Below are positions 19,464 through 22,984 of a DNA stretch of 64,000 nt, one piece after another. Source of the DNA: Candidatus Eiseniibacteriota bacterium (GTDB lineage Bacteria > Eisenbacteria > RBG-16-71-46); NCBI GenBank assembly GCA_963717935.1, contig CAVQXP010000004.1, forward strand, positions 1-64,000. The letters are read 5' to 3'. How positions within the stretch are numbered: position 1 is the first letter of the stretch; each line of letters begins with the position of its first letter. The notes below the pieces were generated by a model that did not search any database, was not told the origin of the DNA, and worked only from the letters and a program-made list of their open reading frames with translations. The translations under genes and the position numbers were made by a program.

Positions 19464-19581
19464 ACACCTGCGGAAGCAGGACATCTCCCAAGTAACGTCC
19501 CGGAAAGGACCTACTCGAATCGCGACGTCCAGGGTCCGGCAGGCACCCGCCCACGACGAGGGCGGACCCGGATCGCTGCTG

Positions 19582-19654
19582 AGCTGGCGAAGGGACTCGA
19601 ACCCCCAACCACCTCATTACAAATGAGATGCTCTACCAATTGAGCTACGCCAGC
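19582..19654 (-). tRNA. tRNA-Thr (TGT), CCA not encoded
   Basis: GCTGGCG acceptor stem, TCTCA-ttTGTaa-TGAGG anticodon arm; followed by CAG rather than CCA. Confidence 0.94.
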
Positions 19655-19687
19655 AGACCCAGGATCTCGCGCAAGAAGAGCAAGGTC

Positions 19688-19716
19688 AAGATAGACAGCG
19701 CACTCGGGGCTGTCAA
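19688..19716 (-). promoter_or_regulatory. Sigma70-type promoter of the tRNA operon
   Basis: TTGACA (19716-19711) - 17 nt - TATCTT (19693-19688). Confidence 0.8.
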
Positions 19717-19773
19717 GACGCGGGGAGGGAATCACCGGCCGATCTGCGCTCCCGGGAGGCCCGGCCACCAGCG

Positions 19774-19820
19774 AAAAGGCAGCCAAGTGAAGTGAACCTG
19801 AGTCCACTCTCTGGCTGCCT
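19774..19820 (-). terminator. Intrinsic terminator ending the putative sigma54-dependent RNA
   Basis: AGGCAGCCA/TGGCTGCCT outer stem, AGTGGAC/GTTCACT inner stem, followed by a short U-tract. Confidence 0.7.
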
Positions 19821-20205
19821 CTTCCCGAGAGAACAGGAGGTGACCGGGAAGAACCCCACTGCTCTCCCGGCTTCGTTGACCGGGCGTATTTGGTTTTTTT
19901 GCAGAACGAATCGCGAACCACTACTCAACAGGACACCGATCGAATCGAGGCTTCTCTCACCCCTTTCTCTCGTTCGGCCTCATCTGCAGAGGCCCACCAA
20001 CTACCCTACGGGTACGAGCCCTACTGAGCGGCCCCACAGCACCGCAAGATCTTTGGTCTGAACAACTTCCCCCTGGAGGCCCCTCAGGCGACCAGCTACG
20101 CATGGAGGTGCAAGACTCGCATCCGGCCGCCTTGGGGCACGGGCCCAATCTCCTCGCAAGGCCCCACTCCAGAGATCACTCGACCCCTTGATCCCCGTAT
20201 CCGTG
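19774..20205 (-). ncRNA. Putative ~430-nt sigma54-dependent structured RNA (candidate sRNA)
   Basis: Bounded by a -24/-12 promoter and a terminator; no convincing ORF; several hairpins; loop with UCACCUCCU (anti-SD); A7 tract. Confidence 0.5.
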
Positions 20206-20215
20206 CATTCTGCAA

Positions 20216-20231
20216 AGCAGGGCGCGTGCCA
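20216..20231 (-). promoter_or_regulatory. Sigma54 (-24/-12) promoter
   Basis: TGGCACG-CGCC-CTGCT with exact GG-N10-GC spacing, downstream of a GAFTGA activator gene. Confidence 0.75.
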
Positions 20232-20345
20232 CGGCCGGAACCTCGTCACGACCAGTCCGGCACGGCGCACGAACTCGCTTTGGTGCAATGGGTTACCAGC
20301 ATGGCGCCAGGCGCCGGGCTGCGCCCTGGCAGGCTCCGCGTTCAG

Positions 20346-20375
20346 GAGAGTGTTACGTCCAGAGGTAACACTCTC
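20346..20375. promoter_or_regulatory. Palindromic upstream activator sequence (bEBP enhancer candidate)
   Basis: Perfect inverted repeat GAGAGTGTTAC-N8-GTAACACTCTC, ~115 bp upstream of the -24 element; related half-sites GGTGACAC/GGTGACAG at ~20421-20442. Confidence 0.65.
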
Positions 20376-20468
20376 GTGGACGGTCAACGAGCTAACTCCT
20401 TATGACGCAAGCCGGTCTCTGGTGACACCCCGGGGGTGACAGTGTCCCCCCCGAGTCAGCGTCCGAAA

Positions 20469-20508
20469 CACGAATCGGGGCGGGGATGACTCCCCGCCCC
20501 GATTCGTG
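20469..20508 (-). terminator. Terminator hairpin of the TPR-bEBP gene
   Basis: Perfect 18-bp stem with 4-nt loop, 12 nt after the stop, followed by TTT on the minus strand. Confidence 0.75.
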
Positions 20509-20520
20509 CCCGCAGCCCCC

Positions 20521-22944
20521 TCAGGGCAGCGTGATGCTCAAGCGCTTGAGCCTGGCGTAGAGGGTCTTGCGGCTGACGCCCAGCAACTCGGCCACCCGGC
20601 TCTTGTTCCGCCCGACCCGCTGGTAGGCCGCCAGGATGGCGGCCCGCTCCTGCTCTGCACCTTCGCGGGCCGGGCGCGCGGGCGAGGCCTGCAGGAGGAA
20701 GGGCAGCAGGGCGGCTGCGTCGAGGCGCTCGCTGCCGACGTGGAGCGCGCCCACGCGCTTCATCACGTTCTCGAGTTCGCGGACGTTCCCCGGCCACGGG
20801 TGCGAGAGCAGCACCGCCTCGGCGTCGGCGCTCAGCCGCGGGCCCTGGAACCCGCCGTAGAAGGCCAGGAAGTGCCGGGCCAGCGGGACGATGTCGTCCA
20901 GCCGCTCGCGCAGCGGCGGCACGCGGATCTCGATCTCGTTCAGGCGGAACAGCAGATCGCGACGGAACAGCCGCTCGCCCTCGCTGCCACGCAGCTCCCG
21001 GTTGGTGGAGGCGATGATGCGCACTTCGGCGCGCCGCACCTTCGTCTCGCCGAGCCTCATGTACTCGCCGCTCTCGAGGAAGCGCAGCAGGGTCACTTGC
21101 ACGTCGTGCGGCAGGTCACCGACTTCGTCCAGGCACAGCACCCCACCATCGGCCGCCTCGACCAGGCCGGCCGTGTCCGCGTGCGCGCCCGTGAAGGCGC
21201 CCTTGCGGTGGCCAAAGAGCTGCGAGAGGGCCAGTTCGGCCCGCAGCGCGCCGCAATTCACGGCCAGGAAGGGCCGGTCCGCCCGGGAGGAGAGCGCGTG
21301 GATGGTCCGCGCGATGAGCTCCTTGCCAGTCCCGGTCTCGCCCGTGATCAACACCGACAGATCGGTGCCCGCCGCGCGCCGCGCCAGGGCCTCGACTCGC
21401 TGCATGCCGTGGGAGTATGCGACCAGCGTGGGAGCCCGGTGCTTGCGGCCCGGCGGGGCCACCCGCGCAGCAGACTCGGCGGCGCCGGCCGCGCCCAGCA
21501 GGCGCTGCAACTCCTCATCGGTGCGCTCGAGCCACTCGTGCGCCGAGAGTTCGGCGAAGAGTGCGCCTGCGCGATAGAGATGGCGCCGTCCCTCGCGCGG
21601 GTCACCCACGGCCCGGCCCAACTCGAACAGGGTGCGGGCCAGCTCGTAGCGCTCACGCAGCCCGGTCAGCATGCGCACCGTGTCCGTCCAGCCACGCACG
21701 GCGTCCTCGTGCCGGCCCTGGGCCCAGGCGATGGCCGCCGCCGCGCGGTGTGCCAGCGCCAGCTCGAGCCGGTCCTCCGTGCGCTCCGCCAGCCGGAGAG
21801 CCCGCTCGCAGGCGCGCTGCGCCTCGTCCAGCCGGCCCAGCCGGGTCAGCGCGTCGGCCCGGCGCCGCTCCAGCTCGACCACCAGGTCGCCCTCGGGGGC
21901 CAGGACTGCGGCCAGCAGGAGCGCCTGGTCGTAGCGCGCCAGGGCCTCGGCGTGCCGGTCGCAGTCGGCGTCCAGCTCACCCAGGAACTCGATCGCCAGG
22001 ACCTCTTCGCGGGGTGCGCCCTGCTGTCGGGCGCGCCGCAGGGCGTCCCCGAAGAGCGCCTCGGCATCGGCGAGGCGGCGCTGCAGCCGGGCGATGTTGC
22101 CGCGCGCGATGCGTACCGTCGCCAGGCGCAGCGGGTTCGCGAGCTGCTGGTAGGCCTGCTCGGCCTGGACGTAGCACTCCTCGGCCCGCTCCCACTCCCC
22201 ACTCTTCTGGTAGACGATGCCCAGGTTGAGGAGCGCGTCGGCCATCGAGGGAAACCGGCCCAGGCGCTGGAACGCCTCGAGCGCGGCGCGCAGGCAGGCC
22301 ACCGCCGCGTCCCACTCGCACAGGTTCTTCAGGATGAGCCCCAGGTCGCTGCGGGCGCGGGCGGCACGCCAGTCGTCGCCGAGACGCCGGTAGAGCCCCA
22401 GCGCCTGTTCGTAGAAGTCCCGAGCCTCGTGCAGGTCGCCCTTGCGGTAGGCGACCCGGCCCAGATGGTGGAGCGCCCGCGCGGCGAGGTCGTGGTCGCC
22501 CGAGGCGTCCGCGAGCGTGAGCGCCGTGGAGGAATGCGCGCGGGCATCGTCGAGACGGCCCAGCCGGAAGAGCGCCTCGGCACACTGCATGTGGATCCCG
22601 GCCCGGGCCGGGCCGGAGTCGATGCGCTCCTCCATCGCCAGCAACTCGCGGCAGTGGGCCAGTGCGCCAAGGGCGTCGCCCTGGGCCAGCCGGCACGCCA
22701 CCGCCCGGCTCTCGAGCGCCACCCTGCGGGTGGGCGAGAGCGTCTGGGCAGCGGGCAGCGCGAGCAGGCGCTCGATCGTCTCCAGCGCAGGGACGTAGCT
22801 GTCCGCCTGCATGTACAGGTCGGCCAGCATCTCGAGCTCAGCCAACGCAGTCTGCGGGGCACCCCCAGTGGGCAACCCCGATTCGCAGGCTGGCGCCAGC
22901 TTCTCTTCCAACTCGGCTATCCGATTCCGGTCATCAATCGGCAC
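20521..22944 (-). CDS. TPR-repeat sigma54-dependent transcriptional activator (TPR-AAA+-Fis HTH)
   Basis: ~470 aa of TPR-like repeats (ALHHLGRVAYRKGD, ALLNLGIVYQKSGE), Walker A GETGTGKE, GAFTGA, LCLDEV, WPGNVREL, HTH NKSRVAELLGVSRKTLY. Confidence 0.93.
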   Translation of the reverse strand: MPIDDRNRIAELEEKLAPACESGLPTGGAPQTALAELEMLADLYMQADSYVPALETIERLLALPAAQTLSPTRRVALESRAVACRLAQGDALGALAHCRELLAMEERIDSGPARAGIHMQCAEALFRLGRLDDARAHSSTALTLADASGDHDLAARALHHLGRVAYRKGDLHEARDFYEQALGLYRRLGDDWRAARARSDLGLILKNLCEWDAAVACLRAALEAFQRLGRFPSMADALLNLGIVYQKSGEWERAEECYVQAEQAYQQLANPLRLATVRIARGNIARLQRRLADAEALFGDALRRARQQGAPREEVLAIEFLGELDADCDRHAEALARYDQALLLAAVLAPEGDLVVELERRRADALTRLGRLDEAQRACERALRLAERTEDRLELALAHRAAAAIAWAQGRHEDAVRGWTDTVRMLTGLRERYELARTLFELGRAVGDPREGRRHLYRAGALFAELSAHEWLERTDEELQRLLGAAGAAESAARVAPPGRKHRAPTLVAYSHGMQRVEALARRAAGTDLSVLITGETGTGKELIARTIHALSSRADRPFLAVNCGALRAELALSQLFGHRKGAFTGAHADTAGLVEAADGGVLCLDEVGDLPHDVQVTLLRFLESGEYMRLGETKVRRAEVRIIASTNRELRGSEGERLFRRDLLFRLNEIEIRVPPLRERLDDIVPLARHFLAFYGGFQGPRLSADAEAVLLSHPWPGNVRELENVMKRVGALHVGSERLDAAALLPFLLQASPARPAREGAEQERAAILAAYQRVGRNKSRVAELLGVSRKTLYARLKRLSITLP

Positions 22945-22984
22945 GCCGGTGCTCCGGTCAATACGGGCCTTTGCCGACTGGGCT

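Follow-up and report, generated by a model that had tools for sequence, protein, structure and literature searches.

The window analysed here, 64,000 nt of contig CAVQXP010000004.1 from a Candidatus Eiseniibacteriota bacterium (assembly GCA_963717935.1), carries on its minus strand what comparison of related sequences indicates is an independent, long, structured non-coding RNA gene of about 432 nt (19774-20205; 316-543 nt in relatives). The gene was delimited by conservation, a promoter, a terminator and contigs from RNA libraries. It lies downstream of, and on the same strand as, a gene for a sigma-54 enhancer-binding protein (EBP), and on balance we lean towards a scheme in which this structured RNA of ~430 nt is an independent, sigma-54- and EBP-driven transcript that feeds back on its activator by pairing with the ribosome-binding site (RBS) of the activator mRNA. 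A preliminary description of the same DNA, made from its letters, had placed a long minus-strand small RNA (sRNA) here, and in this respect it is borne out, both ends of the RNA (~20205 to 19774) falling within a few bases of the limits proposed then.

The RNA appears to represent a genuine family of sigma-54-dependent structured sRNAs that has not been described before. None of the papers listed by our search of the literature on Eisenbacteria, sigma-54 and small RNA mentions Eisenbacteria, and to that extent there is no earlier account of a regulatory RNA in the phylum. No Rfam family, with the Qrr, CsrB/Rsm, CrcZ and 6S models included, matched at E<=1 inside the RNA (19774-20205), as the preliminary description had expected. 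The 6S RNA of this genome (C1:22376-22597, 68.8 bits) and its SRP RNA (C4:1233146-1233245, 60.5 bits) lie elsewhere. The locus can be read from sequence as a complete module: an activator of the TPR type and the DNA site to which it likely binds, the -24/-12 promoter, the RNA of 430 nt and, on the activator mRNA, a predicted site of feedback. The family is well enough defined (alignment, covariance model, ~60 species) for Rfam-type curation.

Promoter, activator gene and phyletic distribution

All features below, the palindrome excepted, are on the minus strand. There, the EBP gene (20521-22944) is followed by a gap of 866 nt and then by a cluster of tRNA genes and tuf, which begins with tRNA-Thr(tgt) (19581-19654); the RNA sits inside the gap. 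Just upstream of it is a sigma-54 promoter, TGGCACGCGCCCTGCT (20216-20231), of the form TGGCAC-N5-CTGC, with the -24 GG at 20230/20229 and the -12 GC at 20218/20217. The start predicted from this promoter, ~20205, is the same base that the preliminary description had given as the upper limit. The motif [TC]GGCA[CT]-N6-TGC is present in 81/81 loci (62 of them non-redundant), 221-454 nt upstream of the conserved core of the RNA, and its distance from the 5' motif of the RNA, CGGAUACGGG, is fixed across loci. The strict sigma-54 motif occurs only 26 times in the whole 3.0-Mb genome, which also encodes rpoN (C2:415225-415701).

The EBP has 807 residues, with N-terminal TPR repeats (TPR_12, 1.7e-34), a Sigma54_activat AAA+ domain (PF00158, 2.1e-59), AAA_lid_14 (PF25601) and HTH_8 (PF02954), and the Pfam scan detects no receiver domain in it. 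Its ortholog stands directly upstream of the RNA, in the same orientation, in 20/20 loci with enough flanking sequence. Between the two genes, ~115-145 bp upstream of the -24 element, lies the palindrome GAGAGTGTTAC-N8-GTAACACTCTC (20346-20375), a candidate upstream activating sequence to which, we infer, the EBP binds. A GTTAC-N6-12-GTAAC sequence is found upstream, at a similar or larger distance, in 24/63 non-redundant loci, many of which ended at 600 nt. Promoter type, candidate palindrome and strict gene linkage taken together, the EBP presumably switches on the promoter of the RNA.

At its other end the RNA has an intrinsic terminator (19774-19819), GGCAGCCA ... UUGGCUGCC followed by UUUU, or GGCAGCC...GGCUGCC-UUUU(C). 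The stem covaries, 4/8 of its pairs (helix 2 of the structure used for counting) having changed on both sides, while the length of the loop ranges from 8 to >40 nt across homologs. Promoter and terminator point to the minus strand as the RNA strand. So do the covarying helices, which are rich in G-U pairs (in 36, 20, 20 and 21 sequences at four of the pairs); on the opposite strand these would be A-C mismatches.

Contigs of relatives from four metatranscriptome runs, belonging to four studies, cover parts of the RNA. They show that the sequence occurs in RNA libraries but say nothing about its strand, 5' end or abundance. One contig of 333 nt covers 19766-19969 and 20066-20105, two others 19774-19897 and 19818-19927, and a fourth, of depth 2, covers 19668-19893 and crosses the terminator. 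That contigs from two studies stop at 19766 and 19774 hints, if weakly, that the RNA ends at the terminator. The library contigs leave 19978-20058, 20113-20166 and everything upstream of 20247 uncovered, and 20059-20112 is covered in X17 only; such gaps are to be expected, because variable sequence was matched at 82% likeness.

The RNA family is confined to one order of Eisenbacteria and to two families within it (57/65 genomes there versus 0/85 elsewhere in our sample). A BLAST search with the gap matched 32/41 related genomes, with conservation sharpest at 19927-19809 and a 31-nt block near-identical even in the second family. An exact 20-mer from the core was found in 61 species-representative contigs, of which 39 are labelled Ca. 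Eisenbacteria, 18 'uncultured bacterium' or 'bacterium', and 4 bear other names. A covariance model of the 3' domain, run on 151 genomes sampled from the phylum, matched 58 of them at 36-66 bits: the genome of the window, 51/59 genomes of family f1 and 6/6 of family f3 (5/5 if genome G026, which is also counted for f3 in the BLAST search and in that for EBP homologs, is left out). There was no match in family f2 of the same order (0/3) or in any other family (0/82).

The gene is single-copy except in genome G019, which has two copies (C3:1227153-1227275 and C6:891227-891346). The second of these also lies beside an EBP-like fragment (60% identity over residues 2-301).

Structure of the RNA

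The 432-nt minus-strand RNA has a minimum free energy of -190.1 kcal/mol, against -173.0 +/- 6.3 kcal/mol for shuffled sequences (z -2.74; 0/100 as low). We aligned 62 non-redundant full-length homologs with MAFFT (alignment A1), and the 3' domain in 61 sequences (A3). RNAalifold recovered 36 pairs on A1, 10 on A2 and 0 on A4, and since on the MAFFT alignments it found only part of the structure, two of the hairpins described below, H3 and H4, were counted on A4 with a structure drawn by hand.

In A1, hairpins of variable sequence alternate with invariant blocks. The latter comprise CGGAUACGGG (20203-20194), GCACCUCCAU (around 20110-20104), GGGCUCGUACCC (20021-20010), the purine motif GGGGUGAGAG (19963-19954), which is replaced by GGGGGGAUGGACG in a subgroup, and AGUAGUGGUUCG (19925-19914), followed in the last 130 nt of the RNA by CAAAAAAACCAAAUACGCCCGGUCAACGAAGCCGGGAG, UCCCGGUC, CUCGGGAAGAGGCAGCC and GGCUGCCUUUUC. 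The most conserved stretch of all is CAAAAAAACCAAAUACGCCCGGUCAACGAA (19901-19872), which lies outside every covarying helix and has 21 consecutive invariant columns across 62 sequences. It begins with the single A-rich run of the alignment (19901-19889, with A7 at 19900-19894).

Hairpin P (19825-19870) is formed by 12 bp, a bulge of 1 nt and a further 5 bp, and it presents an 11-nt loop, UCUUCCCGGUC (19852-19842), that holds the second copy of CCCGGUC. In A3 it is 93.6% paired, and 11/17 of its pairs have changed on both sides, as when GAGAG/CUCUC is exchanged for GAUUC/GGAGUC or UUUGA/UCAAU; RNAalifold on A1 agrees. The covariation score of P and the terminator together is 0.306, compared with 0.182 in shuffles (0/500) and no more than 0.145 after sliding of the partners. 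Hairpins H3 (in the window GCGG/CCGC) and H4 (GGG-CUCGUA-CCC, its loop nearly invariant), at 20010-20045, behave similarly, with a score of 0.229 against 0.121 in shuffles (0/500) and at most 0.090 slid, and with 9/11 pairs changed on both sides. Helix H2 (20086-20132) carries the motif GCACCUCCAU(G/C) in its apical loop (20117-20103), and its base shows compensatory change at pair 72/123 (GC in 32 sequences, AU in 13) and at pair 65/129 (GC in 20, CG in 13).

The remaining hairpins, H0, H1, H5 and H6, have variable letters at a constant place in A1, as judged by eye. H0 (20196-20171) is GGGGAUCA/UGAUCUCU and H5 (19994-19976) is GGCCUC/GAGGCC. H1 (20141-20164), likewise judged by eye on A1 and A2, has a purine loop resembling a Shine-Dalgarno (SD) sequence, UGCGAGGAGAUU, which is GGGGGAG in most relatives; RNAalifold recovers just 3 of its pairs. 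RNAalifold also pairs the 5' motif (20203-20194) with CCCGGUC at 19884-19878, an interaction that lies beyond comparative check because both sides are invariant. A shortened RNA of 316 nt in a complete one-contig genome (G004, C1, ~1909720-1910035) lacks the whole H0-H2 domain, although its promoter, 5' motif and 3' portion (half of the RNA) are retained.

The fold named in the preliminary description agrees with this picture in part. H0 and H5 were among its hairpins and are kept in position. GCCUUG/CAAGGC clashes with helices H1 and H2, which relatives retain, and CCCGG/CCGGG shows no compensatory change and is broken in 24/61 and 12/61 sequences at two of its pairs. Nor is the 8-bp 'penultimate hairpin' a conserved fold, one of its pairs being broken in 48/61 sequences of A3.

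Two tertiary contacts were considered and set aside. An H-type pseudoknot in which the P loop pairs with CGGGAA was rejected for steric reasons, as a linker of 1 nt would have to cross a stem of 12-17 bp. Kissing of the SD-like H1 loop, or of GGGGUGAGAG, with the CACCUCC-containing loop of H2, suggested by eye, has no covariation behind it, because the clade without CACCUCC retains GGGGUGAGAG.

Probable pairing with the activator mRNA and other explanations

The activator mRNA is where we see the most probable target. In the EBP mRNA the SD sequence GGAG (22955-22952) stands 7 nt before the GTG start codon at 22944, and the RBS region (22952-22961) reads ...UAUUGACCGGAGCACCGGC-GUG. The octamer UUGACCGG (22961-22954) overlaps the SD and is complementary to CCGGUCAA of the RNA. 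The predicted seed, CCGGUCAACGAA (19883-19872), is complementary to this RBS and lies inside the invariant stretch. The unpaired probability is 0.73 for the A-rich part, 0.69 for UCAACGAA and 0.48 for the whole 12-nt seed.

We collected the EBP start regions and the matching 3' domains of the RNA from 53 further genomes, and in the 49 f1 genomes with a GGAG RBS compared a 26-nt RBS segment with the invariant 23-nt stretch, counting contiguous Watson-Crick complements. In 30 genomes these extend over 7 nt or more; 11 genomes reach >=8 nt and 6 reach >=10 nt, always in the same register, and the longest, UUCGUUGACCGG, reaches 12 nt in two genomes (G023 and G157). When the 23-nt site was shuffled 300 times, the mean number of genomes was 0.24 at >=8 nt (maximum 2) and 0.94 at >=7 nt (maximum 9); with the site reversed, 1 genome reached >=8 nt. 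In the 5' untranslated regions (UTRs) of f1 the flanks vary, ..GACCGGAG is kept, and the motif ..GACCGG|AG is conserved. UTRs of six genomes (G045, G067, G133, G019, G072, G085) resemble decayed versions of the match of 12-14 nt. Those of other lineages (G010, G021, G013, G017, G094, G107, G014) have GUGACCGG or AUGACCGG, which match over 8-9 nt the copy in the P loop, CCCGGUCA(C/U) = CCGGUCA(C/U). The exact 12-mer CGTTGACCGGAG occurs 40 times in 89 genomes of the family; six of these occurrences coincide with the EBP RBS, and in the 30 loci fetched no other gene recurs.

Feedback pairing of the RNA with the activator RBS is, on these grounds, probable. The EBP encoded upstream would activate the sigma-54 promoter, and transcription of the ~430-nt RNA would stop at its own terminator, ahead of the tRNA-tuf cluster. 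The RNA would then most likely work in trans by base pairing, CCGGUCAACGAA with (UUCG)UUGACCGG|AG at the RBS of the activator mRNA, assisted in some lineages by the CCCGGUCA copy in the P loop. The duplex would mask the first half of the SD, so that synthesis of the activator would drop in a negative feedback; with the first two SD bases inside the duplex, the effect is more likely to be repressive. Further mRNAs would probably be regulated as well, and the conserved CACCUCC in the loop of H2 may serve as another seed, directed at SD sequences. The general idea of the preliminary description, an sRNA acting at ribosome-binding sites, thus survives, with a different stretch of the RNA and with the activator mRNA; the anti-SD seed that it proposed does not.

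Several observations weigh against this feedback scheme. Across the genomes, the exact 12-mer shows no enrichment (40 occurrences versus 31 for the backwards control). The complement in the genome of the window is just 8 nt (UUGACCGG), with a chance probability of ~0.1-0.2 by itself; 19/49 f1 genomes have complements of at most 6 nt, only 7/25 genera reach >=8 nt, and such an RBS was not seen in the 4 f3 genomes examined, where start sites are uncertain. Shuffling overstates the significance, because the genomes, being related, do not count as independent. Within the RNA, predictions often place the CCGG of the seed in a base-paired state, in line with the value of 0.48 for the 12-nt seed, and RNAduplex, applied to the whole RNA and the cognate EBP 5' regions, returned long duplexes interrupted by gaps, their z-scores lying between -1.4 and +1.4. 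The traces of expression come from relatives, as contigs of RNA libraries in which DNA may be present. A search for Hfq (PF17209) found it in none of the 61 genomes covered in the order (45 with a completeness of >=90%), nor in the genome of the window (93% complete). About 100 invariant nt over six motifs exceed what a seed needs, which hints at protein binding or tertiary structure.

A local hairpin that sequesters the SD could by itself account for the conservation of the UTR pattern ..CCGGAG..CGG. The EBP RBS lies in a small potential hairpin, CCGG-AGCA-CCGG (22945-22957), and CCGGAG-N3-8-(N)CGG recurs in f1.

The search for a second conserved target, also to be counted against the feedback scheme, found none among the genomic complements, the CGTTGACCGGAG loci or one TetR-family candidate. 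Exact complements of the whole RNA in the genome are 12-15-mers only, at a chance number, with one RBS match (C4:1323155), and no other gene recurs among the 30 of 40 CGTTGACCGGAG loci that were fetched (10 had no locus). The candidate of the TetR family (C4:199588), whose start is preceded by TTGACCGGAGG, was rejected as a target, the motif not being kept in 23 orthologous upstream regions. Tandem CGGTCAT-type repeats upstream of this gene (G000:C4:199520-199590; L200-L222) are conserved across genera and are probably its operator.

Two other explanations deserve some weight, each of them doubtful. The RNA may bind protein, as a sponge or ribonucleoprotein scaffold in the manner of CsrB/RsmZ, CrcZ, 6S or OLE, with sigma-54 setting the level of titration. 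At least six invariant motifs between covarying or variable hairpins are typical of RNAs that form ribonucleoproteins or tertiary structure. The genome encodes CsrA, and purine motifs containing GGA are found in the H1 loop, in the 5' motif, in GGGGGGAUGGACG and in CGGGAAGAGG. However, only some 2-3 GGA motifs are in plausible loops, as judged by eye, and known CsrA sponges have far more. There is one A-rich stretch instead of repeated AAnAAnAA motifs, Hfq was not found in the genomes searched, as mentioned above, and no CsrB/Rsm, CrcZ or 6S model matches the RNA, while a 6S RNA exists elsewhere in the genome. The arrangement of EBP gene, sigma-54 promoter and RNA of ~400 nt is like that of cbrB-crcZ (PMC5113210), and this speaks for a protein-binding role. 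As an aside, the CsrA reading frame (156 residues; L085 1501-1971; G000:C2:334157-334627) encodes a normal CsrA domain with a long tail rich in Pro, Arg and Gly.

We hold it similarly doubtful, as a whole, that the RNA belongs to a new class of large tertiary-structured RNAs, with at least six invariant motifs and at least six helices, which combines a conserved anti-SD mimic with SD-like purine loops and modulates translation initiation globally. Under sigma-54 control, it would compete with ribosomes for SD sequences or titrate a factor such as CsrA, and pairing with the activator RBS would be its feedback arm.

Slightly less likely again is the model of the preliminary description, in which a hairpin loop of the RNA exposes a sequence mimicking the 16S rRNA anti-SD, and many mRNAs with strong SD sequences are repressed by pairing with it. 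The 3' end of the 16S rRNA of this genome reads ...GGATCACCTCCTTTCT, and the RNA contains two similar sequences, UCACCUCCU/CACCTCC at 19842-19836 and CACCTCC at 20110-20104. It was the first that the preliminary description had placed in an exposed loop. That site is neither displayed nor conserved as an anti-SD: it begins at the last base of the P loop, is otherwise the 3' strand of the upper stem of P, and has a mean unpaired probability of 0.06 over 62 homologs, none of them above 0.7. Its letters change along with the opposite strand, to CCUCC, CCCCC, CUCCC, UUCAC or UCCUC. A related remark, that the matching AGGAGGTGA on the plus strand has no ATG, GTG or TTG at a proper spacing, is correct.

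The second CACCUCC, of which the preliminary description had mentioned only the position, fares much better. It equals the anti-SD core of the genome's own 16S rRNA, sits in the apical loop of the covarying helix H2, is conserved in 55/62 non-redundant homologs, and has a mean unpaired probability of 0.74 (above 0.7 in 37/55). SD use is common in the genome, with GGAGG at ~1278 and GGAGGTG at 107 RBS-like sites. The same abundance counts against the model, since a seed of 7 nt that fits more than 100 RBSs has no evident target specificity. Moreover, the loop deviates in six homologs that form a clade (L034, L057, L058, L062, L067, L071), is missing in G004 together with H0-H2, and could be occupied by the SD-like H1 loop and GGGGUGAGAG of the same RNA. 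The conserved CACCUCC loop may therefore be a second, unspecific seed aimed at SD sequences. A conserved anti-SD mimic in a loop makes competition between an sRNA and ribosomes for SD sequences directly testable with reporters.

It is improbable that the region acts in cis, either as a long sigma-54-driven leader with read-through into the tRNA-tuf genes, or as part of the EBP mRNA, whose 3' UTR or processed tail would pair with the RBS at the 5' end of the molecule. Both neighbours are on the same strand and tightly linked, one low-depth library contig crosses the terminator to 19668, and read-through from the EBP gene would place seed and RBS on one molecule; read-through transcripts of cbrB-crcZ offer a precedent (PMC5113210). 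Against this stand the RNA's own promoter, conserved in all 81 loci, and its covarying terminator. The linkage to the tRNAs is looser than that to the EBP gene, because the gap between terminator and tRNA-Thr varies from ~110 to 820 nt and 3/20 loci have no tRNA downstream. In one of these, L019 in the two-copy genome, there is no tRNA despite ample downstream sequence; the remaining two lie close to the end of a contig or are unclear. A strong hairpin also follows the EBP stop codon directly. It is a perfect 16-bp stem, CGAATCGGGGCGGGGA-tgac-TCCCCGCCCCGATTCG (20469-20508), has no U run, and likely ends or stabilises the EBP transcript.

That the region encodes a small protein is hardly credible: sense-strand open reading frames of 14-63 codons exist, such as a short GTG frame and the 63-codon frame at 20148-19957, which the preliminary description had itself proposed to check for a codon pattern, but the latter has a protein identity of 63% to the closest relative, against 79% for the DNA, it is fragmentary, absent or in other frames elsewhere and deleted in G004, no frame in the RNA is conserved, indels are not multiples of three, and conservation tracks helices and loops instead of codons.

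Known systems and neighbouring features

In circuit logic the locus is closest to LuxO, sigma-54 and Qrr, and in layout and size to cbrB-crcZ; the RNA is a member of neither family. The Qrr sRNAs are ~100 nt long and depend on Hfq, and qrr1 adjoins luxO, which encodes a response regulator. They depend on sigma-54 and LuxO (10.1101/2021.07.01.450815) and pair with luxO mRNA (PMC3262071), and the RNA described here would share with them both the sigma-54- and EBP-driven transcription and the pairing with the mRNA of its own activator, a feedback that in Eisenbacteria is predicted. In contrast to Qrr, it has ~430 nt and at least six helices, belongs to a group in which Hfq was not found (0/61), and has no Rfam match, and its EBP has a TPR N-terminus and lacks the receiver domain. 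If the scheme is true, the locus would be an independent example of a circuit of the LuxO-Qrr type, in an order where Hfq was not found and in a distant phylum that, to our knowledge, has no cultured member.

CrcZ is ~400 nt long and sequesters Hfq/Crc through several AAnAAnAA motifs, whereas the Eisenbacteria RNA has the one A-rich run and no homology to it. The likeness to CrcZ/CrcY and CbrB of Pseudomonas is in the size of the RNA, several hundred nt, and in the order of genes: EBP gene, activator site and sigma-54 promoter, and non-coding RNA, all on one strand (PMC5113210).

The preliminary description had drawn an analogy to RNAs of another kind, those that pair with SD sequences through C-rich loops, such as RNAIII of S. 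aureus and RsaE/RoxS. The unpaired, conserved C-rich CACCUCC of the H2 loop and UCCCGGUC of the P loop could likewise pair with G-rich RBSs. The differences lie in phylum, sigma-54 promoter and size, there is no sequence homology, and the motif singled out for the analogy is not in a loop. Pxr of Myxococcus, also lineage-specific, is said to use a promoter of the sigma-54 type beside the gene of an NtrC-like regulator. It has three stem-loops (PMC5684412), is much shorter, and shows no homology to the Eisenbacteria RNA.

Downstream of the RNA, tRNA-Thr(tgt) is followed on the minus strand by tRNA-Tyr, tRNA-Gly, tRNA-Thr(ggt), tuf, rpmG, tRNA-Trp and secE. Upstream of its promoter, the EBP 3' end and the hairpin behind it (20423-20540) gave a sub-threshold Rfam match to the Streptomyces sRNA Scr5676 (E 0.048), the sole match in the intergenic region 19655-20520. 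With 27.1 bits, far below the gathering score of 56, it was put down to chance, and Scr5676 was rejected as a family for this region.

Full-length homologs of the EBP (32-37% identity, ~830-850 residues) are also found in other families of Eisenbacteria. At three loci of family f10 (L104, L105, L099) a sigma-54-like promoter, preceded by repeats of the GTGACATC type, stands 3' of such distant homologs (~35% identity), and in two of them (L104 and L105) ~300 nt of conserved sequence free of reading frames separate the promoter from a convergent gene. Two loci of family f12 (L101, L102) likewise combine distant full-length EBP homologs (~35% identity) with a sigma-54-like promoter. The sequence at L104 and L105 possibly encodes a second sigma-54-dependent RNA, unrelated or very diverged, and the layout of EBP plus sRNA may be older than the RNA family described here.

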